From positions 4,989 through 68,988 of the forward strand of contig CAIQJL010000086.1 in the NCBI GenBank assembly GCA_903872185.1: a stretch of DNA of 64,000 nucleotides, given 5' to 3'. This DNA comes from an uncultured Bacteroidota bacterium (GTDB lineage: Bacteria; Bacteroidota; Bacteroidia; Bacteroidales; GWA2-32-17). The translations under genes were made by a program, and so were the position numbers. Below, one piece after another: positions 16,301 through 46,792 of the stretch (positions are counted from its first letter, which is position 1; the number at the start of each line of letters is the position of its first letter). A model generated the notes under the pieces. The model was not told the origin of the DNA, ran no database searches, and saw only the letters and a list, made by a program, of their open reading frames with translations.

Positions 16301-16560
16301 TTAATAACTTGAGCAGCATTATTTTCGGCAAATGCTTTTTTATAAATTTTATCAACCAATTCCAAGGCAGATTTTGGCAATCCTTTATCATCAAGACTAT
16401 CAACTGAGGCCCATTCCTTTTTAAAATCTTTAGATGAGTTAAAATGCAATGGCTTGTCTTCTGGTTTTGTATTTGGCTTATTTACAACTACTCCTGCATA
16501 TATTATTGAAAAAAGAACTATGACAGAAGTAAAAACGAGTAATACTTTTTTATTAAACAT
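10381..16560 (-). CDS. Alpha-2-macroglobulin family protein (bacterial A2M, thioester-containing)
   Basis: 2059 aa with an N-terminal hydrophobic anchor. Long MG-domain body, thioester motif YPYECNEQ, and a downstream alpha-helical TED-like region (GGWPWFPG). Confidence 0.85.
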   Translation of the reverse strand: MFNKKVLLVFTSVIVLFSIIYAGVVVNKPNTKPEDKPLHFNSSKDFKKEWASVDSLDDKGLPKSALELVDKIYKKAFAENNAAQVIKARIYQLKYRNMIEEDAFENILNDLIKDAKIMKFPYGPVYHSLASEMYWMYYQNNRWKFNQRSEISNFQNDDIKTWDLNKLADACIKHYMQSLENEDSLKRTPISEIKAVVDLGQGTDGLRPTLYDFLAFRAINFFSNKEIALSKPADYFELKEDFYFSDALEFMNFKINTVDTLSLQFYGIKVIQKLLQFHASDAKPDAFIDADLARLKFIYSNSVNTEKDELYLNALKKLQNKYNSNAFSTEVSYQIAICLNNLSGNYNAQDSLSIKYKDYKIQAIAICNKSIEQFPNSTGAAKCENLKSQIENKTLTFNIEQVQIPGKPFVTKISYQNISKVWIRVSEIDIDEYERLSQNFYGADFVEKILKTAVMVKNFVVNLPYEQDYNDHTTELILDSLQYGHYVIFISPNQEFKFDDDQLAYKDFMVSDISYLYRRCIDGDYDVFVTNRSNGKPLSEVSVQEFYSKYNYVTRKYNNVKGKTHITDENGYVKVLTEYEKDVYNTGLEFKWNKQILKTQQNFYNYRYNNEIEKSYNTIIFTDRAIYRPGQTIYYKGIVVEVDSTKRSIAKKFETTLSFIDPNYQTISQTPISTNDFGTFSGTLQIPQGLLNGNFQLSTSGGSISVSVEEYKRPKFEAELDPFKGNYRLNDTVEVLGKGAAYSGANISDAVVTYRVVRTPVWRGWWWRPTIQTSVEITNGKIKTDEKGEFKFKFKAIPDLSIKADDYTDFDYQVSIDITDINGETQSDSKSITVGYTTLLLDVNVPATLNSSEEKKYYIYSTNLNGEKVAASGKITISKLEDEKEVLRNRLWEKPEKFNYTKEEWEKKYPGNVYDIEADLSKLKTIKQVFSYGFDTGKEEKFEIKDLIKWDPGRYVIEMNSIDSFGKKVMNKKYITVFGEKSIKLPFANPFWHSAVKNYCEPGEIAKFVVGSSYENVHILYEIEHRNKIVFRKWIPVSNNQKLIEIPVKEEYRGNFSVHFRLVANNRVYSFDETVSVPYSNKELKISFETFRDKLLPGQQEEWRLKITGPKGEKVAAEMVAALYDKSLDALKANYWGFNVFPYDYMNMYLSSDLFSTYTSNQILKNYKNYPAIPYQKYDALNWFGFYFYGNRNYYGNSREGASRGKKYSAMMMSQTPDAAPSTVMAGEMYESEKSMDGFGNTKEEQANDQINLLGKEKDKGILGKGDTEDARLGNVKARTNLNETAFFYPTLMTNENGEVIVKFTVPEALTSWKMMGFAHTQNLEYGFINNELVTQKELMVVPNLPRFFRENDKIELSVKISNLTEKELKGQAKIELTDPVTMKTIVGILSKNDEIKSFSVDKKGNTNVVWNLSIPEGINAVSVKVVATAENFSDGEQSVIPVMSNRMMVTESMPLPIRGNSSKVFEFKKLMESGNSSTLKSFKYTLEFTSNPAWYAVQALPYLIEYPYECNEQVFSRYYANSLATHIANSSPKIKAVFDSWKNTPDSKALLSNLEKNQELKSVLLQETPWVLDAQDETQRKRNIGLLFDLNRMSNEMQVALTKLEKSQSANGGWPWFPGMPENKYITQHMITGFGHLQKLKVIDYANNKDLKKMVESGVNYLDKRIKDDYYDLLRFYTKEELLKKHISSTQVQYLYARSFFTEIPIPNNCNIAFEYFKGQAEKYWLSENKYLQGMMALGLHRYQSKKVPLDIIKSLRENSIINEELGMYWKDVEAGYYWYNAPIETQALLIEAFDEVANDQKSVEELKIWLLKQKQTQDWKTTKATVEAIYSLLLKGTDLLANDQLVEIVIGTQKIDPKKMDNVQVEAGTGYFKTSWQGSDVKPEMGKVTVTKNTEGIAWGSVYWQYFEQLDKITPHETPLKLKKELFIERLTSAGKIIEPIKAPAILKVGDKVIVRIELRVDRNMEFVHMKDMRASGFEPLNVFSVYKYQDGLGYYESTKDASTNFFMDNLPKGTYVFEYPLRVSQKGDFSNGITTIQCMYAPEFTSHSQGERVKVE
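12019..12030 (-). other. Thioester site codons CNEQ (CxEQ) of the A2M protein
   Basis: The minus strand reads TGC AAT GAA CAG within ...GAATATCCTTATGAATGCAATGAACAGGTT... Confidence 0.8.
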
Positions 16561-21149: not shown

Positions 21150-22346
21150 TTATTCATGCTCTATATGAGGAGCTTTCTTCCAAGGTGGTAATAACCATAA
21201 AAGAATAGTTAGAATAATTAGTGGAACAACTAACCAAATCATTCCCCCTAAAAACCCTTCTTTACCAATCATATCTAGCTTAAAGTCTGTAAATCCGTAA
21301 AAACTTTTTGAAAATAATTGACCGCCAATAACAACATTCCATCTCATAAAGAAAATCCCCACAAGAACACAAAGTGATAATATGAAATATACAAATTTAC
21401 GAATGTTCTCTTTTGGTTTTAAAAATTGGAATGTTCCTAGAGTTAATAATGGGATTAAGGTACCTATCAATCCTTGCATTATGAAGAAAGTAAAAAACAA
21501 TTTACCATGAACCAATAAATTCAATATATCAAATGATTCTTCAGCTACATAAATTCTATGAATCTGATCAAGCCCTTCTAAAACAAAATCAATAAGGAGA
21601 ATATAAAACAAATACTTACCAATAGCATCAAGACAAATCATGTCTAGTTTTTGTTTTCTAATTATACTTACTGCCATATAAATAAACATTACAAGAGCAA
21701 TACCAGAAACCATAGCAGAAAACAAGAAAATAACAGGCATCATTACAGTTGACCACCATGGGTTCGCTTTTACAGATCCGAAGATAAAGCCAACATATCC
21801 ATGTAAAATAAAAGCCGAAGGAATACCCACTACTGTGATAAAATAACCTAGTTTGTTGTCTGTAATTCTTGATTTATTAGAAACATCTTTAATTCCAAGT
21901 GTTAGGATTTTATATATTATTGATTTGAAACCTGGATTTTCTTTTGACCAGATTGTCATATCATATCTATAATCAAACCAAATTTCTAATAATAGTACAA
22001 CCATTAAGTACCACAAATACACAAAGCCAAAAATGGCCATTGCAGAAGTTAAATGTGGTGTTGTCATAATTTCGTAAAAACGAAATGGTTTTCCTAAGTG
22101 GAAAATAAGTGGCATTGTTGCCACAAGCATAAAAGAAAATGCAGTTAAAAGTGATAACTCATAAGTAGGTTTTAAAGCCTTAATATTAAATACCCTGTTA
22201 AGAGATGCTAAAATAAATGCTCCAGCAACTAATCCGGTAATATAAGGGTAAAGAACAATAAGTACAGACCAGTTTAATTCTATCTCGTTAGGATAGCAGT
22301 AGCCGTCCATCTTGGACATTGCTTCATATAATGATTGAAATTCCAT
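21150..22346 (-). CDS. NrfD/PsrC-family integral membrane quinone-interacting subunit
   Basis: 398 aa, 8-10 TM helices. Immediately downstream (1-nt gap) of the Tat-signal FeS subunit, the classical NrfC-NrfD / PsrB-PsrC / DsrO-DsrP arrangement. Confidence 0.75.
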   Translation of the reverse strand: MEFQSLYEAMSKMDGYCYPNEIELNWSVLIVLYPYITGLVAGAFILASLNRVFNIKALKPTYELSLLTAFSFMLVATMPLIFHLGKPFRFYEIMTTPHLTSAMAIFGFVYLWYLMVVLLLEIWFDYRYDMTIWSKENPGFKSIIYKILTLGIKDVSNKSRITDNKLGYFITVVGIPSAFILHGYVGFIFGSVKANPWWSTVMMPVIFLFSAMVSGIALVMFIYMAVSIIRKQKLDMICLDAIGKYLFYILLIDFVLEGLDQIHRIYVAEESFDILNLLVHGKLFFTFFIMQGLIGTLIPLLTLGTFQFLKPKENIRKFVYFILSLCVLVGIFFMRWNVVIGGQLFSKSFYGFTDFKLDMIGKEGFLGGMIWLVVPLIILTILLWLLPPWKKAPHIEHE

Positions 22347-22347
22347 A

Positions 22348-23112
22348 TTAATGTACCTCCTGACTTAATGCGTTATAATAAAGTTTTGAGCCGGTGTTTA
22401 AATTTGGTTTTAAAGCACCCACAGTATGATTTTTTATAAATTTAACCATTTCGCTTTTTGGATCACGAAGGTTCCCATATAGCCTTGCTCCAGTTGGACA
22501 AACCATCATACATGCTGGATCCATTCCTTTTTTTAATCTATGGTAGCAAAGTGTACATTTATCAACTGTACCTAAATCTGGTTTAATGTACCTGCATCCA
22601 TAAGGGCAAGCCTGAACGCAGTAACGACAGCCAACACAATAATTTGGATCAACAAGCACTACACCATCAGGAGAAACAAATGTTGCTCCTACCGGACAAA
22701 CCTGAGTACAAGGTGATTTAGAACAATGATTGCACATTTTAGGAACAAAAAAAGTTTTAAATATCTCTGATTCAGGAACTGGTTGTTTATAACCATCAAT
22801 GCCACCATTTGGTGATTGAACTTTTACTTCTCCGCTATTGGTAATGGTATATTGTTCAACCCAGCTTCTAAAGAAAAACGGTTCCTTTGGAACATCATTT
22901 TCAGCTTTACAAGCACGTGCACAACTAGCACAACCAATGCATTTTTCGATATCAAGACCTATACCATACCAAGTATCATCGCTCTTTGATTTTTCGGTTG
23001 ATTGAGCAGCTTTTAAAGGACTTAGCAATGATGCAAAGAGAACTCCTCCAGCTATTACTCCAGTTTTCTTAAAAAACTCTCTTCTTGAAAAGTCTTTATT
23101 TTCTTTTACCAT
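22348..23112 (-). CDS. Tat-exported 4Fe-4S ferredoxin-type subunit (NrfC/PsrB/DsrO-like)
   Basis: 254 aa. Twin-arginine signal SRREFFKKTGVIAGG. Four Cys clusters (CIGCASCARAC, CNHCSKSPCTQVCP, CVGCRYCVQACP, CTLC...CMMVCP). Confidence 0.85.
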   Translation of the reverse strand: MVKENKDFSRREFFKKTGVIAGGVLFASLLSPLKAAQSTEKSKSDDTWYGIGLDIEKCIGCASCARACKAENDVPKEPFFFRSWVEQYTITNSGEVKVQSPNGGIDGYKQPVPESEIFKTFFVPKMCNHCSKSPCTQVCPVGATFVSPDGVVLVDPNYCVGCRYCVQACPYGCRYIKPDLGTVDKCTLCYHRLKKGMDPACMMVCPTGARLYGNLRDPKSEMVKFIKNHTVGALKPNLNTGSKLYYNALSQEVH

Positions 23113-23552
23113 AAAACAGGATTATGAGAATTATGACAACTTATACATTCATCTTCTTTATTATGCTCATTCATATCAATTTGTTTGATAACTTTTGCAC
23201 GGGCAGGATTCTTACTATGACACCTTCCGCAGAATTCACGAGCATGTTCTTTTACAATATTTGTCTTTTGAGGATCGTCAACATGTTTGTAGCCTGGCCC
23301 ATGACAGGTCTGACAATTTATTGATTTATGCACACTACTATCTCTAACAGCTGCAATTGAATCATGACATGTTATACATGTTTCATTCATGTTAACATAC
23401 TTAATAGGTCTGTCTTCATTTTCTTTTAAAGCTGCACCCCTATAATGACCATATTCTCCAAAAGTGGCAGGTCTTAAAAAATGACGAGCAACCAAAAATA
23501 ATGCAATAAAGACCGCAAACGCAATCAGAAGTCTTTTTACTTGAACTGGCAT
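23106..23552 (-). CDS. Membrane-anchored tetraheme cytochrome c
   Basis: 148 aa. N-terminal TM helix and four CXXCH motifs (CITCH, CQTCH, CGRCH, CISCH). Overlaps the FeS gene by 7 nt. Confidence 0.85.
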   Translation of the reverse strand: MPVQVKRLLIAFAVFIALFLVARHFLRPATFGEYGHYRGAALKENEDRPIKYVNMNETCITCHDSIAAVRDSSVHKSINCQTCHGPGYKHVDDPQKTNIVKEHAREFCGRCHSKNPARAKVIKQIDMNEHNKEDECISCHNSHNPVLW

Positions 23553-23797: not shown

Positions 23798-25300
23798 CTA
23801 AAACATCTCGAAATGACAATTAGAACAGTTAGTTGTTTTCCAATCTTCTCCAATATCAACTGGATGAATAAATGGCATTGTTCCATTTATAGGAGAATAT
23901 TTAATAGAATCTCTCTGACCTTGACCAATTAATGTATGGCATAAATTACAATCCTTAGAAATAACTTTGCCATCAGATGATTTATGTTTATCGTCATGAC
24001 AACGGAAACAACCTTTATTTTCAAAATGTCCAATATTTCTTGGATATTTCTTATAGCTTACCCTCATGTAAGGAAATGTGTTATATGAAAATTCTTCTTG
24101 AATTGCAGTTACTGCCTTTTTAATTTCCTTCTCATATTTAGAAAATAAAGCGGGGTATCCTTCTTTATAATATTTAATCATCTGATCATTAATTCCTGCA
24201 AACGCAGAATCTTTTGTAGTATAAAGATCGTTTGTAGCTTCCATTGCAGCACTTTTAAGATAAGGAACTTTTGTGTCAATTCTATTTCCAGCAAACAATT
24301 CATTTACATAATGAGGAGGCGAAAAGTATTCATGTGATGGGCGATTATGACAATCCATACAATCCATCATTCGTTTTTCAGTAGTAGCAACTTCCTTAAC
24401 AGTAGGATGAATTGATGTGTCTTCTTCTACAAAAACAATCTCTTTTCCTGTTGACTTATTAAAATATCTTACCCAAGGAATTGTTTGGCGCTTTTCATCA
24501 GCTTGATATGTTATCTCAACATCGTTATTAATATGCCAATGTATTCCCTCGGTATTGCCTAATGCAGAATGATCGGCTCCAATTCTCATTTTCATAATAA
24601 CATCCCATTCGGTATTTGCAGAATCGGCTAAATAGTATTTTTGACTTCTAATTTTATTTGTATAGAATTTTTGAGGCCAATGGCATTTTTCACAAGTTTC
24701 ACGAGCTGGGCGTAAATTAGCTATAGGTGTTTCAATATTTCTTGGATAAGTTCCCAATATATATTTGTAAACCTGTCGTAAACCAGACATTTTAGATTTT
24801 ACATAAAAATCAGCTCCTTCACCAACATGACATTCTGCACATTTAACGCGAGCATGAGGTGAATGTTGATATGCAACATATTCAGGTTCCATCACTTTAT
24901 GACAAAGTTTTCCACAAAACTCTACCGATTCAGTATAATGAAATCCTTTATAACTACCTATTACAGTTGCAATAACAAAAAATATTGTAACAACAGTAAA
25001 AATAAGAATTGCATTTCGTGTTTGTGGATCTCTAAGATTAATGACTAATAATTTTTCGTCAGAAACAGGCAATCCTTTTTTAAGTTTTCTTTTTTTAAGA
25101 TACATCCCAGTAGGTATTAGGATTAATCCAAAAACAAGAAATCCTGGTGTAACTAAATACGCAAAAAGATCAAAGTAAACATTGTCTGTTTGAAAGAAAT
25201 TAATCTGTATAACAAAGAAAGTAATTGCAAAAGCTGCAATAATTGCAATAATAGATCCTAAATAGGAAATATAATTGTAATAAGTACGTGGTAGTTTCAT
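23798..25300 (-). CDS. Inner-membrane heptaheme cytochrome c with NapC/NirT-like region (ImcH-like)
   Basis: 500 aa with three N-terminal TM helices. NapC/NirT-like FCGKLCHKVMEPEYVAYQHSPHARVKCAECH. Seven heme motifs: CGKLCH (CX3CH), CAECH, CEKCH, CMDCH, CFRCH, CNLCH, CSNCH. Confidence 0.75.
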   Translation of the reverse strand: MKLPRTYYNYISYLGSIIAIIAAFAITFFVIQINFFQTDNVYFDLFAYLVTPGFLVFGLILIPTGMYLKKRKLKKGLPVSDEKLLVINLRDPQTRNAILIFTVVTIFFVIATVIGSYKGFHYTESVEFCGKLCHKVMEPEYVAYQHSPHARVKCAECHVGEGADFYVKSKMSGLRQVYKYILGTYPRNIETPIANLRPARETCEKCHWPQKFYTNKIRSQKYYLADSANTEWDVIMKMRIGADHSALGNTEGIHWHINNDVEITYQADEKRQTIPWVRYFNKSTGKEIVFVEEDTSIHPTVKEVATTEKRMMDCMDCHNRPSHEYFSPPHYVNELFAGNRIDTKVPYLKSAAMEATNDLYTTKDSAFAGINDQMIKYYKEGYPALFSKYEKEIKKAVTAIQEEFSYNTFPYMRVSYKKYPRNIGHFENKGCFRCHDDKHKSSDGKVISKDCNLCHTLIGQGQRDSIKYSPINGTMPFIHPVDIGEDWKTTNCSNCHFEMF

Positions 25301-25575: not shown

Positions 25576-27966
25576 ATGAAATTTATTAAATTTATTAAAG
25601 CAAATTCATTATTCTTTCTGATACTTTTTTGTATTGAAGCAAGCTCTCAAGAGATTGTTTGTTTAGATTGTCACGAGAATTTGGTTTCAAATTCGGTACA
25701 TAACAAGGTTATAAAATGTGGTGATTGTCATCGTGACATTACAACCACAGAACATGGTGCCGGCTCTGCAAAACCGGTTAATTGCGCTAATTGCCATGCA
25801 GCTTTAGATAAACTTATGAATAATGATGTTCATAGAAATATAATGAAGCTTGAAGAAAAAGATGCACCAAATTGCAAAAAATGCCATGGTACTCATAATA
25901 TAAAATCTCCTTCAAAAATTGAAAATAAGCAAAAAGAATATTGTAGTAAATGTCATAAAAATGAAGTTCTAAAATCTAATTATCATTATAGCAATGCCAA
26001 CAATGAAAATTGCAGCAAATGCCATAATGAAAAAATGCATAAAGAGAAATTAGCAAAATCTGTTCACAGCAAATTGAATTGCTCTAATTGTCACAGTTAT
26101 GTTGTAAATAATATTGGCAATCATAAAAAAGCTCCAAAAGACGGAGTTTTGGCAGATTGTTATTTATGTCATAGCGCTATTGCAGCTGAACATAAAGAAA
26201 GCATACACGGTTTGTCAATTTCAGAAGGGATTAATGAAGCAGCGCAATGCTGGGACTGTCATGGTTCACACGCAATTGATTCTATATCGAATAAAAACAG
26301 TTTAGTATTTCAAACAAATTTGGTAACAACATGTGGCAAATGTCATGATAATCCTGCATTTACAAAGAAACACTTATTTGCGATTAAAACTCCTGGTATA
26401 ATGTACTCGAAAAGCGTACATGGAAAAATAGTTGCTGATGGAAAAAATGCTGCAACATGTGTAACTTGTCATGGCAAACATGATATAAAAAACAGAATTC
26501 AACCAGGTTCTAAAATAGCAAGTATAAATATTCCTAATACATGTGAAGAATGCCATAAAGAAATTACTTTAGAATATAAACAATCTATACACTGGATTGC
26601 TGTTAAAAAAGGAATTAGAGAATCTCCATCTTGTAACGACTGCCATAGTGAACATAATATTCACGAAATTAATACTCCAGAAAAGAGAGAAGAAATTAAA
26701 AAAATTCAATCTCAGACATGTTTACAGTGTCATCAGAATTTAATGCTTTCTGAGAGATATGGAATGTCGGGTAATAGCGCAGGAAATTACGAAGACAGCT
26801 ATCATGGCTTGGCATCAGCTCATGGCGAAGATAAAGCAGCTTTATGTGTAGATTGTCATGGAGTACATAAAATATTACCAAAATCACACCCTGAATCTTC
26901 TATTAACAAAAACAATATTACTTCTACCTGTAAGAAATGTCACGCTAAAGCAACTGATGTTTTTTCAAACAGTTATTCGCATACAACGCAAGTTAACTCT
27001 GCAAAAAACATTGAGGACATTGTTACTTCGGTATATTTTTGGTTAATTGTAGTGGTTGTAGGATGGATGTTTGGGCATAATCTTTTAATATTAATTCACG
27101 AGCTAAGAAAACGTTATAAAAAATCTAAAAACGAAATTAGAATTCCTCGATTTACAACAAATGAATTAGTACAACATACTGTATTACTAGCTTCATTTAT
27201 AATATTAGCTATATCTGGTTTTCAATTAAAATATCCTGATAGTGCTTTTGGAAAGGCATTATATGCATTAGGTATGGATGAAAATATTCGTCAATGGGTT
27301 CATAGAATTTCTGCAATAGTAATGATTATACTTTCTGTTTACCATGCTATTTATTTAATTATTACAGCAAGAGGTAGAGATGTGCTAAAAGGATTATTCC
27401 CAAATTTCAGCGATGTATCGCAAGCTATGGGTAATATGTTATTTTATTTACATTTAAAAAAGAAACAACCAGAATTCGACAATTATAATTACATGGAAAA
27501 ACTCGAATACTGGGCATTAATATGGGGAACATTAGTAATGGGTGTTACTGGACTTGTACTTTGGTTCCCAACACTTGGTGGCGATTGGGCTCCTATTTGG
27601 TTTATTAAAGTAAGTGAGATTATACATTTTTACGAAGCAATACTTGCTACCTTGGCTATTGTTATTTGGCATTGGTTCTTTGTAATATTCCACCCAAAAG
27701 AATATCCTTTAAATTTCATTTGTATTGATGGTGAAATTACTATTCATCATTTTAAAGAAGAACATAAATTAAAATTCTACAAAGTAATTATTGAGTGGCT
27801 TGAAGTACAAAAAGGTATTCGTACCGCGAAAAAAATGAACCACTATACAAAGTTATTTATTAAAGCTGTTGAAAAAGGTGGTGTTACAATGGAAAGTCTA
27901 GTAAGTTCTGAGCTTAATAAAGACGAACATTTAATGGCATTAGCTGAACAACAAGGTTTAATATAA
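25576..27966 (+). CDS. 16-heme cytochrome c fused to a C-terminal FdnI/HydC-type cytochrome b membrane domain (CbcL-like)
   Basis: The ORF track starts at TTG 25543; ATG 25576 gives the signal peptide MKFIKFIKANSLFFLILFCIEASSQ. 16 CXXCH motifs by my count. The C-terminal ~300 aa have 4-5 TM helices with conserved His (LVQHTVLL, WVHRISAIV..YHAIYL, IIHFYEA...WHWFFVIFHP). Confidence 0.8.
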   Translation: MKFIKFIKANSLFFLILFCIEASSQEIVCLDCHENLVSNSVHNKVIKCGDCHRDITTTEHGAGSAKPVNCANCHAALDKLMNNDVHRNIMKLEEKDAPNCKKCHGTHNIKSPSKIENKQKEYCSKCHKNEVLKSNYHYSNANNENCSKCHNEKMHKEKLAKSVHSKLNCSNCHSYVVNNIGNHKKAPKDGVLADCYLCHSAIAAEHKESIHGLSISEGINEAAQCWDCHGSHAIDSISNKNSLVFQTNLVTTCGKCHDNPAFTKKHLFAIKTPGIMYSKSVHGKIVADGKNAATCVTCHGKHDIKNRIQPGSKIASINIPNTCEECHKEITLEYKQSIHWIAVKKGIRESPSCNDCHSEHNIHEINTPEKREEIKKIQSQTCLQCHQNLMLSERYGMSGNSAGNYEDSYHGLASAHGEDKAALCVDCHGVHKILPKSHPESSINKNNITSTCKKCHAKATDVFSNSYSHTTQVNSAKNIEDIVTSVYFWLIVVVVGWMFGHNLLILIHELRKRYKKSKNEIRIPRFTTNELVQHTVLLASFIILAISGFQLKYPDSAFGKALYALGMDENIRQWVHRISAIVMIILSVYHAIYLIITARGRDVLKGLFPNFSDVSQAMGNMLFYLHLKKKQPEFDNYNYMEKLEYWALIWGTLVMGVTGLVLWFPTLGGDWAPIWFIKVSEIIHFYEAILATLAIVIWHWFFVIFHPKEYPLNFICIDGEITIHHFKEEHKLKFYKVIIEWLEVQKGIRTAKKMNHYTKLFIKAVEKGGVTMESLVSSELNKDEHLMALAEQQGLI

Positions 27967-27989
27967 CATTTAGAATACAATCTCTTTTT

Positions 27990-28013
27990 ATGTCAGGTCT
28001 TTCGACCTGACAT
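27990..28013 (+). terminator. Terminator hairpin ATGTCAGGTC-TTTC-GACCTGACAT after the 16-heme gene (copy 1 of a repeated hairpin)
   Basis: 10-bp perfect stem 24 nt after the stop, followed by a T-rich tract. The identical 24-mer occurs at 57264-57287 on the other strand. Confidence 0.7.
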
Positions 28014-28072
28014 TTATTATTATTTTTAGTTAGATCTGTATTAAAAGAAGCTTATAAATTGAACGATACTAA

Positions 28073-28105
28073 ATAAAAAACGCATCAATTATTAAACTGA
28101 TGCGT
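28073..28105 (-). terminator. Rho-independent terminator after the 218-aa ORF
   Basis: Stem acgcatca/tgatgcgt (28080-28105) followed on the minus strand by TTTTTTAT. Confidence 0.7.
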
Positions 28106-28128
28106 TTTATATTTAAAAAAAGAATTAT

Positions 28129-28785
28129 TTATTCTTTTGAAGCATCATTTACTATATCATTATCAAATTCAATAATTTTATACATATAGGTTGGAAAGTC
28201 AATATCAAGCTTTCTTACATCTGCAAAATAGTCATCGCCTGCATATAATTCAATTTTCTTTTTCTCTTTGTTAACATTAAATGCTAATTGACCTGAAAAA
28301 AAATGCGAATAATTAAAATAATATAAATTGTATCCTTCAGGTTGCGCCTTTACTTCATTTTTCTTATCAAATAACTGAGTACCTGTTTTTATTAAAATAT
28401 TTTTTGCAGTACCACTATCATCATCTACATCTATTTTTGTAGTACAATCATATAATTTAAAAGTTTTAGGTTTTTGTGCAATATGTTTTGGATGATTTTT
28501 ATTTACCCACCTTAAACAGATATCTGAGAATTGTGAATAAAAAGAACTAATTTCAATGTCCATTTCAAAGCCTAATGGCTTCTCTACATATTTTTGCCAT
28601 CCTTTATCTCCTATATTGTATGGAAATCCAACTAATAAATGAGTTATTATAACGTCTTTGTGCGAATTAAGCTGATACACAAATGACTTGAAATCATTTG
28701 CGAAATTCTCCATTTTTGTACCTGGAATACCTTTAATATTTTGCTGTTCGGCAAATATTGTTTGTAAATTTTTTTCGGTTATCAT
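28129..28785 (-). CDS. Hypothetical cytoplasmic protein (no recognisable domain)
   Basis: 218-aa ORF with no signal peptide, TM helix or Cys motifs. It has its own terminator and lies between the two CbcL-like genes. Confidence 0.55.
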   Translation of the reverse strand: MITEKNLQTIFAEQQNIKGIPGTKMENFANDFKSFVYQLNSHKDVIITHLLVGFPYNIGDKGWQKYVEKPLGFEMDIEISSFYSQFSDICLRWVNKNHPKHIAQKPKTFKLYDCTTKIDVDDDSGTAKNILIKTGTQLFDKKNEVKAQPEGYNLYYFNYSHFFSGQLAFNVNKEKKKIELYAGDDYFADVRKLDIDFPTYMYKIIEFDNDIVNDASKE

Positions 28786-28880
28786 AATACATTTTTAAGT
28801 TAAATATTTAATTAAGCAATTTAAAATAATTTAATAATATTAAATGCATTTTACCTTTTACGTAAAAAAATGCTTAATAA

Positions 28881-28911
28881 GAAAAGCTGTATAAATTTTA
28901 TACAGCTTTTC
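28881..28911 (-). terminator. Hairpin terminator after the 19-heme gene
   Basis: 13-bp perfect stem gaaaagctgtata/tatacagcttttc with a 5-nt loop, 20 nt downstream of the stop at 28931. Confidence 0.6.
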
Positions 28912-28930
28912 TTTATTTCTAATTAAGTTT

Positions 28931-31714
28931 CTAGTATGTACCTGCTATTAAAGAATAAATAATAAGCCCAACTAATACTATTCCGGTAAATAAGAATATG
29001 TAACCAAATACTTTTACTGTTTTAATCCAATTTTGCGAGAATGCTTTTTTAACAATTACTGTATCTAGTTTTCCAGCTTTTTCTAATTCTTCATATTCTT
29101 TTGGTCTATCGGCTTTATACTCTTCTAATGGAACATGTCCGGTAAATATTACAGTATCCATTGGGAAAGCCTCAGGGCGTAAGTGAGTGTTAAAAAAGTG
29201 AATTGTAAAAATAAATCCAACAGCCAATAAAGCTTCATCGCTATGTATTATTTGAGCTACATTAATTAACCAGCCAGGGAAGAATTTTGTAAAATATTCG
29301 GGTAGCCATAACACTAGACCAGAGAAACCAATAACAGCAACTCCCCAGAATACCGCCATGTAATCAAATTTTTCCCAATATGTCCAACGACCATAATAAG
29401 GACGTGGTCCAGCTCCTAAGAACCATTTAACAGTACCAATAGCATCTTTTAAATCTTGTTTGTTAAACATTAAAGAATCTTTGCCAAAAATGAATGACAT
29501 AATTTTTGTCTTATTTCTGATTTTCATTCTTATTAATGAGAATACATGGAAAATAAAGTATCCAAAAGTAATAACTGCTGCAAAACGATGTATATTACCT
29601 GCCACATGAACGCCACCAATTAACTTTGCCATATTAAATGCCCAAGGCATATGAGCAAATTTAAGCATCATACCTGTAAGTGCTAACAATAAGAAACTAA
29701 CAATTACAAAAACATGGGTTATTCTCTGGCTCTTTTTAAATCTACGGAAATAAACAGCTTCACCTGTTGGCATTTTATGATGCTTCTTTTTTCTTGCTTC
29801 CATAATAGACCTTGGTATCCATAACAACGTGTGAATTCCAAAAATTCCAAATACACTTAGAAGAAGAGTAGTCATAATCCAAAATGTATAAAACAATACA
29901 TTATTATCGTTGTGGGTAGCATGAGTTAAATATCCGGTAAACTCAACATTTGCATTTGGATGGCATTGCTTACAAGTTTTAACAATATTTTTTTGCCCTA
30001 CCATCGACTCTGGATTCGAAATTTTTAAAATTTTATGAGCACCATGACAGTCAGAACATCTTGCAGCTTTTAAATAACCAAGGGTATAAGCTTTGCCATG
30101 ATAAGTTTCCATATAAGTCTCAGCAAGTTTCTTATGACAACTACCACACTGCATAGTGATCTCATTTAAGAATTTATCTTTATCTATTTCGGTAATTGTA
30201 TGAGCAGTATGGCAACTTGCACAAGTAGGGAATTTTTTACCACCATTGTCTGCTGTTATTGCATGATCACTTGTCATATAATCATCATAAATACTCTTAT
30301 GACATTTCGAGCATGTTTTAGGAACATTTAATGGATTTACTGTAGAATTTAAATCAGATTCTTTTAGTATGTTATGTGAGGTATGACAATCGGTACAAAC
30401 TGCACTTGCAAGCAATCCTTTTTCTTTTAATCCTTTTCCATGAACACTTGAAGAATAATCACTAAAAGCATCTATTTCTTTTAAATGTGTATTAATAACT
30501 GCTTTTCCATTTTTGTTGTGGCATTTTCCACAAAGCTCAGGTATAGAACCTCTATAAGTAGGTGACGTATCATCATATCTTGTTTTTACTTTATGTGTTC
30601 CATGACAATCTGTACAATATGGAGCATTTGGCTGTTTTTTAAAGTAAGCCTGACCATGTCCACTTGTTATATATATATTTGAAACCTGCTCGTGGCAACC
30701 AGAGCAATCAACTTTTTTATTAGTAATACAAGGGCGTTCTTTTTTATTATCTATTGTTACCTCAGAATGACACTTTGTACAAGGAATATTTTTATGTGCA
30801 GAATTTACTAAATCGTCTTTGTTAATTTTAAGTGATACTTTTTGGTTATTTACCATCTTATATGTATCAGCATTCTCATGACATTTTAAACAAAGCTGAT
30901 TTGAAACAGTTTCTTCAATTTTCTTAATTTTAACAATGTGCGATGGGTGACAGTCACTACATGCAGGAACAGACCCAGCTTGCTTTTCCCATAATTCTCT
31001 TTTAATAACCTTTGTATGTACTTCTTCAATTCTTGCATGGCATTTCATACATGTACTCGCAATCTTATTAGGCGAGATAGAAGAATTTGGACTTGTATGT
31101 GGCAATATTAAGTGATTACCATGACAGTCGTTACAAGTTGCTGAAACAATTAACCCGCTTTTAAATAAACCTTTACCATGGATACTTTCACTATAATGTT
31201 CTAAAATATTACTTTGAGGAATGTTATACAATCTTGCAACAGGAGATCCTTCTTTATGGCATTTACCACAAAGAATTGGAATATTCATTTTATAAGTTAA
31301 CGATTTTGGATTTGTGTGATTTAATATTCCATGTCCACCATGGCATTCTTTACAATCTGGAGCATAAGGAGCATTTAATTTTAAAGCTTGGCCATGTATA
31401 CCTGCAAAAAATTGCATTTGTGCATTTTTATGGCAACCACCACATTCAACTGGTTTTAAATTTTCGGGATGAGGAAATTCTGCTACTGCAGCATCTTTAT
31501 GACAAGAAGCGCAAAGAACACTTTTATGAACTGATTTATTCAGGATATTCTTATCGGCATATAGCGAAATAGTTTTTCCCTGTCTAACTTTTGATAATCC
31601 ATGATCTTCATGGCACATCAAACAATCATCATTTGTTTGGGAAAATAAACTACTAGTTATTAAAACTATACTAAAAACAACTAATAATAATTTTTGACTA
31701 ATTTGATTTAACAT
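28931..31714 (-). CDS. 19-heme cytochrome c fused to a C-terminal FdnI/HydC-type cytochrome b membrane domain (CbcL-like paralog)
   Basis: 927 aa with signal peptide and 19 CXXCH motifs by my count. The C-terminal membrane domain has conserved His ([31 protein letters not shown]...IHFFNTHL), the same architecture as 25576..27966. Confidence 0.8.
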
Positions 31715-32225: not shown

Positions 32226-33116
32226 TTAGAACCTAACAGTAATATTAAAACCAATTAATAAACTATTAAAATCCCTATGATTATATAAATAATTTTTTTG
32301 TGCAATTATATTGTTATAAGTAGTTGCAAATAACTGAAATGCATGAGTACCACCATTTTTCTCAAAGCCAAAAGCAAAACCTGGCTTAGAAGCTCCCGGC
32401 ACATCTTCACCATCAGCATTTTTTGGATAATCAAATGATTCAAGTGGTGAAACATAATTAAATTCTGCCATAAATGATATCTCATTCCAGATTTTAAACC
32501 TACCACCTATGCTAGCACCAATAGCCTGATTAGAATATAAAGAATCAACTTTATTGAAATGTAAAAAATATGGTGCAATTTCCATTGATAATCTCTCACT
32601 AAATTTACGTGCAATAATAAGTTGGTGAAAATAAGATAGGCGACTTGCAAAATTATAGTTATCACCAAAATACGCTTTTTCTCTACCACAAATAACTACA
32701 TTTCCATAATAAGTAAGGAAGAAAGGCATTCCATTTTCTTTTTGTTGAAGTATAGAATATTTCAATAAAAATTCCTGCATTTTATTGAATTTTTCGGTAC
32801 CAAATCCAATCATTAATTTATCGGTAATTCCATAATTAATTCCAAGTCTTGTGTTAGCAGGTCCGTATACACCAAATAAATCGCTTAATTTTTTAATTGT
32901 ACCTATTCTGTGATGAATAATAAATTCTTTTGATTTTTTGGTTGGCTGGTTTATAGTTTGTGTTTCGATAAGCATAGAACAAGCAAATGCATCTGCAACA
33001 GGAGTTTTTGCTACTGAAGGTGTTTCTACTGCTGGTGTTTCTACTTCTTGTGAAACAGCAAAATTAATGCTGATTATCAGCACTAGAGATAAGACAAAAG
33101 CTATTTTTTTTAACAT
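32226..33116 (-). CDS. Small outer-membrane beta-barrel protein
   Basis: 296 aa. Signal peptide MLKKIAFVLSLVLIISINFAVSQ, alternating amphipathic strands, and a C-terminal aromatic ...LLIGFNITVRF. Lies 33 nt downstream of the lipoprotein cytochrome gene. Confidence 0.6.
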   Translation of the reverse strand: MLKKIAFVLSLVLIISINFAVSQEVETPAVETPSVAKTPVADAFACSMLIETQTINQPTKKSKEFIIHHRIGTIKKLSDLFGVYGPANTRLGINYGITDKLMIGFGTEKFNKMQEFLLKYSILQQKENGMPFFLTYYGNVVICGREKAYFGDNYNFASRLSYFHQLIIARKFSERLSMEIAPYFLHFNKVDSLYSNQAIGASIGGRFKIWNEISFMAEFNYVSPLESFDYPKNADGEDVPGASKPGFAFGFEKNGGTHAFQLFATTYNNIIAQKNYLYNHRDFNSLLIGFNITVRF

Positions 33117-33149
33117 AATAATGTATTTATTTATTGTTTGTTTTTTATT

Positions 33150-34079
33150 TTACCAGCACTTTTTACCAACTCCACAATGAGCTGCATTACCATTACCAGA
33201 ATATCTTGACCCATTTGCCATTGTTCCGCCAGCGCTAATGCTTAAAGGTTTAAAGAAAGTTTGGCCGTCAACATGATAATTAGTTCCGTAAGTTCCTTGT
33301 AAGTTGGAATTATTAATAATATTAACGCTATCATTAGCAGCAGCTACGGTACTTGTATTATGACACCAAAAACACTGAACTCCATCCCATTGAGGAGTAG
33401 TATAAGGTGATGCAGAAAAATCTTTATTATTTGTCATATGAAAAAGTAATTGATGCTGACCTGATTCTGGATAATTACTTTGTTTCATAGAGTTTGGTTT
33501 TGAAACAAGAAAAGGTGAAGTCATGTTTCCTAAACCATTGTGACAAGAAGTACATTCAGTTACCTTACCATTATCCCATCTTGGTGTGGTAGCATAAACA
33601 GCAATCTGCTTGCCAACAGTAGCGCTCCAATTCATTGATCCAACAGCATTTGGATATCCTGGATCTTGTCCGCGATATGCTGTACGACCATTACTATGAC
33701 AATATACATTTGAACAAGTTTTATTCTTAGAATCCCAAGTTGGAGAATTACTGTCATTTCCGTTTCTGGTAATCAAACTAGTTAAATTAAATGTAACATT
33801 TTTAACACCATTCATGTGTGTTGCAGTTTCATATCCATGTCCAAAATGGCAAGTGTTACAGCTATATGCATATAAACCTTTAGTGTGCTTAGCATGTGCA
33901 TTAGAAGAATGCTCTGCAAAAGTACCATTATGACAATTTTCACATAACTCAGGCAAAACAGTAGAACCTGGTGCGGGAGTATTTTTAAAAGTGATTTTCT
34001 GTTTTTCACACGAGGCTAAAAAAATTACACTACTTATTAGTAACGTAAACAAAATAGTCCTTAAATTTTTCACATTCAT
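33150..34079 (-). CDS. Lipoprotein multiheme cytochrome c (5 heme motifs including one CX4CH)
   Basis: The ORF track starts at 34127; ATG 34079 gives MNVKNLRTILFTLLISSVIFLASC, a lipobox signal peptide. Motifs: CENCH, CNTCH, CSNVYCH (CX4CH, codons 33696-33716), CTSCH, CFWCH. Confidence 0.75.
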   Translation of the reverse strand: MNVKNLRTILFTLLISSVIFLASCEKQKITFKNTPAPGSTVLPELCENCHNGTFAEHSSNAHAKHTKGLYAYSCNTCHFGHGYETATHMNGVKNVTFNLTSLITRNGNDSNSPTWDSKNKTCSNVYCHSNGRTAYRGQDPGYPNAVGSMNWSATVGKQIAVYATTPRWDNGKVTECTSCHNGLGNMTSPFLVSKPNSMKQSNYPESGQHQLLFHMTNNKDFSASPYTTPQWDGVQCFWCHNTSTVAAANDSVNIINNSNLQGTYGTNYHVDGQTFFKPLSISAGGTMANGSRYSGNGNAAHCGVGKKCW

Positions 34080-34161
34080 TACTTTATATTTAGTTAAATT
34101 AAAATTAAAGCTCTTAGAAATACTCAAATATGATTTAAAACATAAATCATGTTTAATAATA

Positions 34162-36888: not shown

Positions 36889-37287
36889 TTAAATGTATTT
36901 ATCCAAAGTTTGTGTTTCCATATACTCTTTAAATTTTACAGTTAAATCAAGAGTAATGTTATTCATAAAACACATACTAAATGGGCATATTTGTTTGTCG
37001 AGAAAACAATTTGAAATTTCAATTTTACCTTCAATTGCCTCATAGATACTCAATAAATTGATCTTCTTTGCTTCTTTCTTTAATATAAAACCACCTGTTG
37101 GTCCACGTTGTGAAGTTAAAAAGCCTTCTTTTACTAACCGTTGTAAAACTTTTGCAACATGATGTTTTGAAGTTAAAGTTGCTTCAGCAATCTCTAATAC
37201 ATTAGTAACTTTATTTGCTCTAGCAATAATTATCATTCCGTGCATAGCAATGGATGCAGCCTCTGAAATTGTAACGACTTTTGACAT
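36889..37287 (-). CDS. Rrf2-family transcriptional regulator (Cys-containing, possibly FeS-sensing)
   Basis: 132 aa. wHTH HHVAKVLQRLVKEGFLTSQRGPTGGF and C-terminal cysteines CFLDKQICPFSMC. Confidence 0.8.
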   Translation of the reverse strand: MSKVVTISEAASIAMHGMIIIARANKVTNVLEIAEATLTSKHHVAKVLQRLVKEGFLTSQRGPTGGFILKKEAKKINLLSIYEAIEGKIEISNCFLDKQICPFSMCFMNNITLDLTVKFKEYMETQTLDKYI

Positions 37288-37312
37288 TGAATAATTTTGG
37301 TAATTGAATACA

Positions 37313-37320
37313 CAAATGTA
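37313..37320 (-). promoter_or_regulatory. -7 box TACATTTG upstream of the Rrf2 gene
   Basis: The plus strand reads caaatgta, 26 nt upstream of the ATG at 37287. Confidence 0.4.
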
Positions 37321-37458
37321 ATATATTATTTCTTGTTATAAAACATTAAATAAAAAATTAGACTTATAATTCTAAAATTTTCGTAAAACTTTTGATTCCT
37401 GAAATTATAATTTTTGTTCATTATTAATTTATCTCTCTTTTTATTTCAGGTGAATATA

Positions 37459-37466
37459 TACTTTTG
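37459..37466 (+). promoter_or_regulatory. -7 box TACTTTTG upstream of mntP
   Basis: The plus strand reads tacttttg, 15 nt upstream of the ATG at 37481. Confidence 0.4.
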
Positions 37467-37480
37467 CAAAAAAATAATTA

Positions 37481-38035
37481 ATGGATTACATCATAATTTT
37501 TCTTGTTGCTGTTGGTTTATGCTTCGACACTTTTGCTGTTTCAATTAGTAGTGGTATTGCAAAGCAGGAAATTATTTTTAAAGATGCTCTTAAAATTGCA
37601 TTAACTCTTGCCTTTTTTCAAAGTGCAATGCCGCTTGCTGGATGGAGCCTGGGCGAACAAGTTAAAATATACATTTCTGAATTTGACCATTGGATTGCCT
37701 TTACAATACTTTCAATTTTAGGTATTAAAATGATTTTAGAAAGCTTTAAAAACGAAAACGAAAAGGAATTTAATCCACTGAATCCATGGATTTTAATAAG
37801 CATGGCTATTGCAACCAGCCTTGATGCTTTAGCTGTTGGAATTAGTTTTTCTATGATTAGTATACCAATATTAATGTCTGTATTAATAATTGGCTTTGTA
37901 ACATTTTTAGCTTCTATGCTCGGTATTCTTTTCGGAAAAAAAACAGGGAAAAGCTTTGGGAAAAAGATTGAAATTGCTGGAGGAATAATTCTTTTAACAA
38001 TTGGCTTTAAAATTCTTATTGAACATATTGCTTAA
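37481..38035 (+). CDS. mntP: Manganese efflux pump MntP (DUF204 family)
   Basis: 184 aa, six TM helices. Duplicated motif CFDTFAVSISSG / SLDALAVGISFS is typical of MntP. Confidence 0.8.
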   Translation: MDYIIIFLVAVGLCFDTFAVSISSGIAKQEIIFKDALKIALTLAFFQSAMPLAGWSLGEQVKIYISEFDHWIAFTILSILGIKMILESFKNENEKEFNPLNPWILISMAIATSLDALAVGISFSMISIPILMSVLIIGFVTFLASMLGILFGKKTGKSFGKKIEIAGGIILLTIGFKILIEHIA

Positions 38036-38355
38036 TAATCGCTTATCTTTTTTTATATGTTTTACAACATGCTTTAATGTTATTTTTTCGCATTTTAAGC
38101 ATCAAAATCACTCTATTTTTTTAAGCTTTTTTAACTTATTCTCTTACACTTACAGCTTATTTCAAATTTGTTATTTTAAAATATTCTAAATACCAATTAC
38201 TCGTTTTGATAGCTCACATAAGCTTGTTATATAGCACAATACGGCCATTGATTAAATAACAGATATTTTGGCTTAATATTTTTTAAAAAATATCTATTTT
38301 CGCCAATTGAAATAAAGAATAATGAATTATTCCATTAACTTTTTACATTTCTACC

Positions 38356-38706
38356 ATGAATAGTGAATATTTAATACTGTTTTTCCTGCTGGGGGTCATA
38401 CTTGTAGGTGGAGCTATTTTGTTCTCCATGTTTACTGCCCCAACCTCAAAAAATTCGGCAAAAGCGGAACCATACGAATGCGGTATTCCGGTAAAATCTG
38501 ACGCCTGGATACAATTTAATGTTGGCTATTATTTATTTGCCATCATTTATTTAGTTTTTGATGTTGAAACTGTATTTATTTTCCCTTGGGGTGTAGTTAT
38601 GCGCGATATGGGAATAACAGCATTTATAGAGATATTAATATTCTTCTTTATACTTGTATTAGGACTTTTATATGCTTGGAAGAAAGGAGCTTTAAAATGG
38701 GTGTAA
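38356..38706 (+). CDS. nuoA: NADH-quinone oxidoreductase subunit A
   Basis: 116 aa, 3 TM, PYECG motif. First gene of the nuo operon. Confidence 0.9.
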
Positions 38707-39251
38707 AAATCAAATCAATGAAATATGAAGATTTCAAGGACAATGAAACCTTAGAGATCTTTAAAAAATCTGGTGGAAATATTTTAGTAACCAGTATCGA
38801 CAACATTATTAATTGGGGTAGAGCTAACTCTGTTTGGCCACTTACATTTGCTACAAGCTGTTGTGGTATTGAAATGATGGCTGCAGGTGCTGCCCGTCAT
38901 GATTTTTCACGATTTGGAATTGAAGTATACAGAGCCAGCCCACGTCAGGCTGATGTAATTGTGGTTGCCGGAACAATAGTTCACAAAATGGCACCTATTT
39001 TAAAAAGACTTTATGACCAGATGGGCGACCCAAAATATGTTATTGCAATGGGAGCATGCGCAGTTTCTGGCGGTCCATTTTTCTATAATTCATATTCGGT
39101 AGTTCGTGGTGTAGATCAAATAATACCTGTTGATGTTTATATTCCAGGTTGCCCACCTCGCCCCGAAGCGCTATTATACGGAGTAATGCAATTACAACGT
39201 AAAATTAAAACTGATAGCATTAAAAATAAACACATTGCTGAAGTTAAATAA
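38697..39251 (+). CDS. nuoB: NADH-quinone oxidoreductase subunit B
   Basis: I chose ATG 38697 (MGVKIKS...) rather than the track start 38586, which runs inside nuoA. Motifs [12 protein letters not shown] and GCPPRPE (N2 cluster ligands). Confidence 0.9.
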
Positions 39252-39263
39252 TCCGAATATTTT

Positions 39264-39722
39264 ATGACTAACGATCAATTAAAAGAAAAAATAAACGGAT
39301 GGATTTCAGGATTAGAATTTCCTGAAAACAAACAATATCTAGAAATAGTTGTTCCAGCTGAATCACTTCTTAAACTATCTCGACTTTTAAGAGAAACACC
39401 CGAAACATTATTCGATTATTTATTTTGCCTTTCAGGTGTGGATTATGGAAAACAATTAGGAGTTGTTTATCATCTAGAAAGTACTACTCACAACCACGCA
39501 TTGGTTCTAAAAGTTAAAACTGATGACCGAGTAAATCCAAATTTCGACACAGTTTGTGGACTTTGGAGAACAGCTGAATGGCATGAACGCGAAGTTTTTG
39601 ACTTATTAGGCATTAAATTTAACAACCATCCTGATATGCGTCGTTTATTCCTAGACGATGAATGGGTTGGTTATCCATTACGCAAAGATTATAAAGATGA
39701 CATTAACATCATCGAACGTTAA
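39264..39722 (+). CDS. nuoC: NADH-quinone oxidoreductase subunit C
   Basis: 152 aa. WRTAEWHEREVFDLLGIKFNNHPD is the NuoC signature. Confidence 0.9.
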   Translation: MTNDQLKEKINGWISGLEFPENKQYLEIVVPAESLLKLSRLLRETPETLFDYLFCLSGVDYGKQLGVVYHLESTTHNHALVLKVKTDDRVNPNFDTVCGLWRTAEWHEREVFDLLGIKFNNHPDMRRLFLDDEWVGYPLRKDYKDDINIIER

Positions 39723-39734
39723 TAGATTGAATAT

Positions 39735-40859
39735 ATGGAAGAAGTATTTCAAGATATAATAATAAAACATAGCGATGATTACATCATTAATATGGGTCCC
39801 CAGCATCCATCTACCCATGGTGTACTTCGTTTCGAACTTTGCCTTTTAGGTGAAACAGTAAAGTATATTATTCCACATTGCGGATACATTCACAGAGGTA
39901 TCGAAAAAATGTGTGAAAAAAACACTTATCAGCAAATAATTCATTTAACTGACAGATTTGATTATCTATCGGCACATATGAATAATGAAGCAGTTTGCTT
40001 AGCTGTAGAAAATGCTTTAGAAGTTGAAGTTCCTGAAAGAGTAAAATATATTAGAACTATACTTGCAGAATTAAACCGTATTGCATCGCACCAACTTTGG
40101 TGGTGTGCATTTGGAATGGATTTAGGCGCACTAACTACATTCTTTTATGGTTTAAGAGATCGTGAATATATTCTTGATATTTTCGAAGAATCATTTGGTT
40201 CACGTTTATTGCATAGCTTTAACTATCCTGGTGGATTAATGCATGATTTACATCCAAATTTTCAACAAAAAGTTAAAGATTTTATTAAATATTTCAGAAA
40301 AAAACTTCCAGAATACGATCAACTTTTAACAGGTAACATTATTTTCCAACAACGTTCAATCGGAATGGGTTATATGTCAAAAGAAGACGCTATTTCTTAT
40401 GGAGTAACAGGCCCTTCTGGACGTGGTTCTGGTTTTAAATGTGATGTAAGAAAACATCATCCTTATAGTGCATATTCAAAAGTTGACTTCAAAGAAATTC
40501 TTTATACAGAAGGTGATACTTTTGCACGTTACAAAGCAAGAATTGACGAAATGTGGGAATCAATGAATATTATTGAACAATTAATTGATAATATTCCTGC
40601 AGGTGATTATACTGCAAAAATGAAACCTATCATTAAACTTCCTGTTGGAGATTATTTCCAAAGAGTTGAAACTGCAAGAGGTGAATTAGGTTGTTACATT
40701 GTAAGTGATGGAAACAAAAATCCACTTAGAGTTAAATTCAGAACACCAAATTTCTCGAACCTTTTTATAATTAATAAAATTGCTTCCGGAAATAAAATAG
40801 CTGACTTGGTAGCAATCAGCGGATCATTAGACTTAGTAATTCCTGATATTGACAGATAA
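39735..40859 (+). CDS. nuoD: NADH-quinone oxidoreductase subunit D
   Basis: 374 aa. [14 protein letters not shown] and a C-terminal ...[10 protein letters not shown]. Confidence 0.9.
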
Positions 40860-40870
40860 TAATAATCAGT

Positions 40871-41962: not shown

Positions 41963-41971
41963 TTAGAAGGT

Positions 41972-42472: not shown

Positions 42473-42474
42473 GC

Positions 42475-42981: not shown

Positions 42982-42993
42982 AAAAATATAACC

Positions 42994-43311: not shown

Positions 43312-43330
43312 TAAATTGAAAATTTAAGAT

Positions 43331-45250: not shown

Positions 45251-45268
45251 ACTGAAAATTAAAGAAAC

Positions 45269-46765: not shown

Positions 46766-46792
46766 TTTATATAATTATATTTTCTGAACATT

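Follow-up and report, generated by a model that had tools for sequence, protein, structure and literature searches.

Two genes of an uncultured, low-GC Bacteroidales bacterium encode large fusions of a multihaem c-type cytochrome with a membrane-embedded cytochrome b; they lie in the window analysed here, a stretch of 64,000 nucleotides from contig CAIQJL010000086.1 (assembly GCA_903872185.1). Gene A (open reading frame, ORF, 25576..27966, + strand) specifies a protein of 796 amino acids in which a 16-haem c-type domain precedes an FdnI-type cytochrome b, and gene B (ORF 28931..31714, - strand) a protein of 927 amino acids in which a 19-haem c-type domain precedes an FdnI-type cytochrome b of the CbcL/MtrH/MtoC clade; their relatives are called A type and B type below. 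To judge from their sequences, A and B are probably inner-membrane quinol:cytochrome c oxidoreductases of the CbcL/MtrH/MtoC superfamily that function in extracellular electron transfer. Architecture, topology and ligand set are those of an FdnI-type dihaem cytochrome b joined to a chain of bis-histidine (bis-His) haems. The find is well supported but largely ordinary.

The presence of two multihaem-c/dihaem-b fusion genes is confirmed. An earlier note on this DNA, made from the sequence and its ORFs, had described two paralogues with 16 and 19 CXXCH motifs, many of them in the paired-CXXCH style, and with conserved histidines at equivalent helices, and each of these observations holds. A contains 16 and B 19 CXXCH motifs, with no CX3-4CH or CXXCK variants in either protein, and the chance expectation is well below 0.01 motifs per protein (our estimate from typical Cys and His frequencies). 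Both proteins match Paired_CXXCH_1; an alignment over ~750 residues (29% identity, E 3e-98) shows them to be homologous and puts the histidine motifs cited in the note into shared columns. The start of A is placed at ATG 25576 rather than at the upstream TTG 25543 because an identical database protein (P0001) is 796 amino acids long.

The note had also raised the concern that each ORF might be an assembly fusion of separate genes. Such an origin, whether through assembly chimeras or accidental joining of a c gene to a b gene, has a negligible probability: for A and for B alike, more than 100 independent relatives are fused in this way and agree in length and haem count, and a second, separate ENA contig holds an identical copy of A in equal gene order. 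Sixteen motifs are found in 117 of the 120 nearest A relatives and 19 motifs in 110 of the 120 nearest B relatives; because the haem counts recur across many independent assemblies, the fused architecture is not an assembly artefact. The one observation that favours accidental fusion is that the B type of Ignavibacteriota truly consists of two genes (locus L033, 7990..10816; also L002, 7055..9976). At L033 a protein of 655 amino acids, with 19 haems in the spacing of B and one anchor helix (TM0, for transmembrane helix 0), is followed by a cytochrome b of 288 amino acids. The stop codon of the first gene and the start codon of the second overlap (ATGAATGA), a sign of translational coupling that also marks the split form as a genuine two-gene variant.

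Both proteins hold an FdnI-type dihaem cytochrome b domain, for which haem binding is predicted from sequence and structural models. In A, the anchor helix TM0 (27031..27099, + strand; residues 486-508) carries a near-invariant His501 and is followed by a four-helix FdnI-type core (27157..27696; residues 528-707) with the ligands H534, H576, H684, and H699 and an EK motif (E641 K642). A conserved, helical cytoplasmic tail of ~90 amino acids (27697..27963), which has no family or PDB match, stands in place of the sixth helix of CbcL and B. In B, TM0 (29813..29902, - strand; residues 605-634) carries an invariant His628, and the four-helix core (29180..29746; residues 657-845), with the ligands H667, H709, H824, and H839, is followed by a sixth, C-terminal transmembrane helix (28943..29035; residues 894-924). 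The four to five C-terminal helices given in the earlier note are thus correct for A, which has five helices after the signal peptide plus the soluble tail, but not for B, which has six. The loop between TM2 and TM3 is shorter in A.

Several comparisons relate these domains to FdnI, the cytochrome b subunit of formate dehydrogenase-N. The Pfam family PF01292 (Ni_hydr_CYTB) matches A with 63.9 bits against a cut-off of 30.1, and weak NCBIfam matches to formate dehydrogenase γ are found for both proteins. A profile built from 18 b domains of the family finds FdnI (1KQF chain C) at E 5e-9, and FdnI H18, H57, H155, and H169 align with H534, H576, H684, and H699 of A and with H667, H709, H824, and H839 of B, so that all four b-haem ligands expected in the earlier note are accounted for in both proteins. 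One of these histidines lies on helix 1, one on helix 2, and two on helix 4, and they are kept in 485, 489, 489, and 488 of 489 aligned family members. The E and K of the EK pair are kept in 476 and 488 of the 489, respectively; the pair aligns to FdnI Q113-K114, which we take to lie beside the menaquinone site, near the cytoplasmic haem. The mean predicted local distance difference test (pLDDT) score of the AlphaFold2 models is 74 (A) and 70 (B); within the b domain of B it reaches 80–90. The top Foldseek match for both models is FdnI (1kqf_C; TM-score on target 0.73, probability 1.0; E 5e-5 for the B model), followed by the hydrogenase cytochrome b HyaC (4gd3_A; TM-score 0.55–0.56).

The distribution of positive charges follows the positive-inside pattern, with K+R counts in successive loops of 8/2/7/1 in A and 10/1/11/1 in B; the TM0–TM1 and TM2–TM3 loops are therefore predicted to be cytoplasmic and the haem c domain periplasmic. 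Hydropathy and loop charges together thus predict a CXXCH region outside the cytoplasm, as the earlier note had supposed. The two genes of the split B type divide between TM0 and the cytochrome b, and so locate the point of fusion in the TM0–TM1 loop on the cytoplasmic side.

Two further conserved histidines lie at cytoplasmic membrane depth (residues 501 and 590 in A, 628 and 723 in B). The histidine of TM0 is found in 475 of 489 relatives and the second histidine of TM2 in 324 of 489; the CbcL-like clade retains the former and has lost the latter, and 155 sequences have only the TM0 histidine of the two. These sequences make it unlikely that the TM0 and TM2 histidines ligate a third haem b.

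The c-type domains are modular. A begins with a signal peptide (25576..25647, approximately residues 1-24) that has three Lys residues in its N-region, a hydrophobic core, and a predicted cleavage site between EAS and SQ; its 16-haem domain, predicted to be periplasmic, follows at 25648..26985 (residues 25-470). The last eight haems of A form two tandem 4-haem units with a spacing of 30,28,42,28, and residues 185-345 align with residues 315-475 at 35% identity (E 6e-25). B likewise begins with a signal-like hydrophobic segment (by hydropathy). Its haem domain consists of a first 8-haem module (30899..31642, - strand; residues 25-272; spacing 37,23,30,28,45,28,30,23), a second 8-haem module (30155..30898; residues 273-520; spacing 37,25,30,28,45,28,30,25), and the membrane-proximal haems 17-19 (29915..30154; residues 521-600; spacing 30,28). 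The two modules are 35% identical to each other (E 5e-49). Relatives with 11 haems have one 8-haem module and those with three haems have none, their whole c domain corresponding to the unit of haems 17-19 in B; haem number thus rises in 8-haem steps (3, 11, 19). These repeats point to growth of the haem domains through tandem duplication, the duplicated unit having four haems in A and eight in B. A further route of growth in the family is represented by the database protein P0242 (1005 amino acids, 22 CXXCH motifs), in which the motif spacing is that of two complete 11-haem units in tandem.

Histidines outside the CXXCH motifs number 14 invariant plus two near-invariant in the A family and 19 to 20 invariant in the B family. 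These totals equal the haem counts, so bis-His ligation is to be expected throughout, as the sequences of both proteins suggest; fully bis-His haems would act as electron carriers and not as catalytic sites. The c domain of B also contains an unpaired cysteine, Cys329 (motif RPC, ~30728..30730), eight residues before the eleventh CXXCH motif, which is invariant in 55 of 55 aligned B-family sequences.

The size of these proteins has precedents. A census by Zhong & Shi (2018) lists 138 CbcL/MtrH/MtoC homologues from 15 phyla, with 416–1034 amino acids and 3–23 CX2CH motifs, and includes members with 4–5 transmembrane helices (PMC6295460). Its Table S2 holds many 19-haem proteins of ~913–952 amino acids from Marinilabiliales, Marinifilaceae, Salinivirgaceae, Ignavibacteria, Caldithrix abyssi, and other groups (PMC6295460). 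The earlier note was right that the haem counts of A and B are roughly double that of CbcL (16 and 19 against 9), and its reading of both as multihaem-c/FdnI-type dihaem-b fusions of CbcL architecture is borne out by the homology of both the c and the b parts; its view that the fusions are unusually large is not, as the census reaches 23 motifs and 1034 amino acids and contains many 19-haem entries (PMC6295460). The structural interpretation is therefore correct, while the claimed novelty of size is mostly in the literature already. The length and haem-count distribution of the family, which the note had proposed to survey, places 19-haem entries of ~930 amino acids in the motif spacing of B; for example, the motifs of PLX00698.1 are at positions 33,70,93,...,553,581 and those of B at 31,68,91,...,553,581. 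When the C-terminal half of B is used as query, 4830 representatives are found (50% clustering, E ≤ 0.001), and among the top 150 of these the haem counts span 0 to 22, and 11 is the commonest.

Identities of the b domain separate the two proteins. That of B is 40–45% identical to CbcL-like 9-haem proxies, 46–54% to 11-haem representatives, and 37% to MtoC-like 9-haem representatives; B is, on these values and its motif spacing, a further member of the already catalogued 19-haem group. For the b domain of A, identity is 25–30% to every group of the clade and ~26% to B, and a profile of the A family aligns with a profile of the CbcL-like 9-haem proteins with a probability of 100% (hhalign, E 1e-79, 539 columns). 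A is best placed, from these comparisons, as a deep sister subfamily whose family membership is at the superfamily level. No 16-haem protein of ~800 amino acids is present in census Table S2 (PMC6295460); the A type is missing there because its b domain is only 25–30% identical to the clade.

A scan with one genome per species finds an A-type gene in at least 575 genomes. The 120 nearest A relatives have 754–847 amino acids, except for two shorter, probably truncated entries, and come from assemblies of Bacteroidota, Ignavibacteriota, and 'Chlorobi', where they carry generic names only. Isolates with an A-type gene include Rosettibacter primus 4148-Me and Melioribacter spp. Ez-97 and OK-6-Me; the B type has cultured carriers in Caldithrix abyssi (Cabys_319) and Marinifilaceae SPP2. 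A literature search on Melioribacter or Rosettibacter with CbcL or cytochrome returned nothing on the A type, and neither a multi-omics paper on M. roseus nor the Caldithrix genome paper discusses these genes.

Synteny was compared at 55 A-type loci with at least 3.5 kb of sequence on each side. At 38 of these the A-type gene has a B-type neighbour, which invariably shares its strand and lies upstream in 32; the other 17 lack this partner. The same-strand B–A pair is kept across phyla. In some Bacteroidota the order is DUF5777–B–A, and at times a gene for a small monohaem cytochrome c separates the DUF5777 barrel from B. In the window, A and B converge, as the earlier note had reported, on an intervening 218-residue ORF (28129..28785, - strand) that has no match in Pfam, NCBIfam, or PHROG and is not part of the conserved pair; the gap between B and A at locus L004 is 110 bp and does not contain this ORF. 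The note had taken the convergent arrangement as a sign of duplication and divergence of the two copies. The b domain of B is, however, nearer to CbcL-like proteins (40–45%) than to A (~26%), and the tandem pair is the prevailing arrangement. Identity values and synteny together rule out a recent local duplication, and A and B are best read as ancient paralogues that normally stand in tandem. Because 38 of 55 loci have the same-strand pair, the convergent layout is attributed to a local rearrangement of an old tandem pair, and the 218-residue ORF probably arrived with the rearrangement that inverted A. A terminator-like hairpin follows A (27990..28013, + strand), a 16-bp palindromic hairpin lies just past the stop codon of B (28879..28913), and terminator-like hairpins also follow the 218-residue ORF and the DUF5777 gene; from the hairpins after A, the ORF, and B, it follows that A and B are probably transcribed separately here. 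A scan for sigma-70 promoters gave fewer matches than shuffled sequence, the consensus being inapplicable to Bacteroidota.

Further components of the cluster are encoded around A and B. Divergent from A is a homologue of ImcH (23798..25300, - strand; 500 amino acids) with a NapC/NirT N-terminal domain, three N-terminal helices, a CX3CH motif at residue 129, and six CXXCH motifs, at the positions found in the ImcH homologues of census Table S3 (PMC6295460). Next to it, an anchored tetrahaem cytochrome c, a Tat-signal NrfC-type iron-sulfur protein, and an NrfD-type membrane subunit (21150..23552, - strand) make up a third quinol-interacting module; this trio also adjoins ImcH–A–B at loci L023 and L043. 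Upstream of B lie genes for a DUF5777 β-barrel and a lipoprotein cytochrome (32226..34127, - strand), the latter with an LASC lipobox, four CXXCH motifs and one CX4CH motif, and a TIGR01904 domain. DUF5777 genes are found immediately upstream of B-type genes at loci L004, L013, L016-18, L027, and L078, and no paper found in a literature search mentions DUF5777. The barrel and the lipoprotein cytochrome are candidates for an outer-membrane partner or conduit. This cluster context (ImcH, the NrfCD–tetrahaem module, DUF5777, and the lipoprotein cytochrome) recurs in relatives. Beside the cytochrome cluster are an Rrf2-family regulator, an MntP manganese exporter, and an 11-subunit complex I operon (36889..48226), of which nuoA, B, C, D, H, I, and L are confirmed by Pfam and in which NuoEFG were not seen. 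Elsewhere in the window, a bacterial α2-macroglobulin of 2059 amino acids (10381..16560, - strand) has MG2, A2M, and bMG10 domains.

The same context bears on whether A and B might instead be CymA- or NrfH-like quinol dehydrogenases of general use in the periplasm, supplying soluble reductases (for nitrite, sulfur species, arsenate, or selenate) or storing electrons, with no extracellular role. Haems that are apparently all bis-His, and so carriers rather than catalysts, would suit such a function, and the absence of a B partner at 17 of the 55 A-type loci is compatible with it; Caldithrix abyssi, which has a 19-haem homologue, is described as a fermenter and nitrate reducer, and its genome paper makes no mention of extracellular electron transfer. 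The cluster, however, contains no gene for a terminal reductase and places a β-barrel, a lipoprotein cytochrome, and ImcH beside A and B, while the Ignavibacteriota loci contain many more multihaem cytochromes, together with proteins that have CxxxxCH domains, as is typical of clusters for extracellular electron transfer. We therefore regard the general dehydrogenase role as improbable.

In the architecture derived from sequence and models, a Sec signal peptide exports the bis-His multihaem c domain to the periplasm, TM0 brings the chain back to the cytoplasm, and the four-helix bundle, with two haems b stacked across the membrane, comes next. If A and B serve extracellular electron transfer, menaquinol would be oxidized at a site like that of FdnI, facing the cytoplasm, from which electrons would cross through haem bC and haem bP and then pass along the 16- or 19-haem chain. 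The acceptors of the chain would be periplasmic or outer-membrane partners, probably the DUF5777 barrel and the lipoprotein cytochrome, and the neighbouring ImcH and NrfCD-type modules would work in parallel in extracellular electron transfer. For CbcL and CbcBA, quinol is proposed to be oxidized on the cytoplasmic side, where the membrane potential would aid export to low-potential acceptors without adding proton-motive force (bioRxiv 10.1101/2023.05.03.539133). In A and B, too, charge would move as the membrane potential favours, an arrangement suited to low-potential acceptors that would conserve little energy, as proposed for CbcL.

Several points weigh against this assignment. The A and B subfamilies are known from sequence alone, and CbcL is represented in the comparisons by 9-haem proxies picked by motif spacing, not by GSU0274 itself. 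These proxies have the length class and motif spacing of CbcL, and some of their motif fragments match readable parts of a published alignment (PMC9129911), which include ERW(T)YWEKFDF(L)AVFWGM. The PF01292 match of B, at 27.9 bits, is just under the cut-off, and the dihaem model leaves the extra TM0 and TM2 histidines unexplained. Weak Foldseek matches of the A and B models to hydroxylamine oxidoreductase could mean that the haems are packed compactly and not in a line. Moreover, the direction of electron flow is not readable from sequence, because the family also holds MtoC of Fe(II) oxidizers. A and B might accordingly run in reverse as quinone reductases like MtoC, carrying electrons from outside (Fe(II), a cathode, or a syntrophic partner) into the menaquinone pool. 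Census homologues occur in both Fe(III) reducers and Fe(II) oxidizers with no sequence feature separating the directions (PMC6295460), and the 37% identity of the B b domain to MtoC-like representatives is in keeping with a reductase. Against this, an ImcH homologue adjoins A, and the ImcH family has so far been found only in reducers (PMC6295460); a low-GC Bacteroidales bacterium with a neighbouring complex I operon fits an organotroph shedding electrons; and uphill menaquinone reduction needs an energy input, of which the locus gives no suggestion. The reverse direction is hence doubtful, and outward transfer from menaquinol remains the probable role of A and B.

Little has been established on how bacteria other than Geobacter and Shewanella pass electrons from their quinones to the cell surface, and sediments and anode biofilms commonly harbour Bacteroidota and Ignavibacteriota. 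For the inner-membrane step in these phyla, the ImcH homologue, the NrfCD-type module, and the two CbcL-type proteins together provide concrete candidates. What is new beyond the census is the widespread and apparently undescribed 16-haem A subfamily, the B–A pairing conserved across phyla, a B type that exists as one gene or as two, and haem domains that grew module by module, with the 8-haem steps; all can be tested in cultured carriers. On a speculative reading, to which we give little credence, the B–A pair would be one heteromeric complex, with 35 c-type and at least four b-type haems, that docks on the DUF5777 barrel and lipoprotein cytochrome. Such a complex, spanning the periplasm, would make soluble shuttles such as PpcA unnecessary in Bacteroidota and Ignavibacteriota. 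On the same reading, the near-invariant extra histidines of TM0 and TM2 might bind an additional haem or form a new kind of quinol site.

Among known systems, HmcA of Desulfovibrio shares with A its 16 c-type haems but is soluble and lacks a b domain, and A is not a member of that family (NCBIfam NF045713, 19.7 bits against a cut-off of 400). FdnI, the b556 γ subunit of Escherichia coli formate dehydrogenase-N (PDB 1KQF), resembles A and B in its four-helix bundle, four histidines, and cytoplasmic N-terminus; residues are also conserved where its menaquinone site lies, on the cytoplasmic side, and TM0 of A and B would take the role of the single anchor helix of FdnH. The partners of FdnI are iron-sulfur and molybdopterin subunits, whereas that of the b domain in A and B is a fused multihaem c domain; FdnI reduces quinone, whereas A and B are expected to oxidize quinol; and identity is only 17–19%. 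CbcBA of Geobacter sulfurreducens combines a multihaem c subunit that has one C-terminal helix with a separate dihaem b, much as the split B type does at L033; the likeness is one of arrangement, CbcA having 7 haems (Joshi et al., 2021, as summarized in PMC9129911 and bioRxiv 10.1101/2023.05.03.539133) and the split B type 19.

The closest counterpart is CbcL of G. sulfurreducens (GSU0274; Zacharoff et al., 2016), which has nine bis-His haems, is required for acceptors below −100 mV, and reduces PpcA (PMC9129911). CbcL proper, with a spacing of 23,25,23,24,29,28,43,28 and ~615–620 amino acids, is not an orthologue of A (796 amino acids) or B (927 amino acids); it has 9 haems against 16 and 19, A differs from it by its five helices and tail, and low-potential function has been shown for Geobacter CbcL only. 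Like A and B, it consists of a periplasmic c domain, an anchor helix, and an FdnI/HydC-type dihaem b. CbcL and B alike have six helices and have in common the motif WTYWEKFD and a ten-letter motif; the spacing of the last four haems is 29,28,43,28 in CbcL and 30,29,42,28 in A, with CbcL holding one copy of this 4-haem unit and A ending in two. In Geobacter, ImcH serves acceptors above ~ −100 mV and CbcL those below (PMC6295460, PMC9129911). By analogy, the ImcH homologue and two CbcL-type proteins encoded here mirror the Geobacter arrangement, and it is plausible that A and B, as the earlier note proposed, serve separate potential windows.

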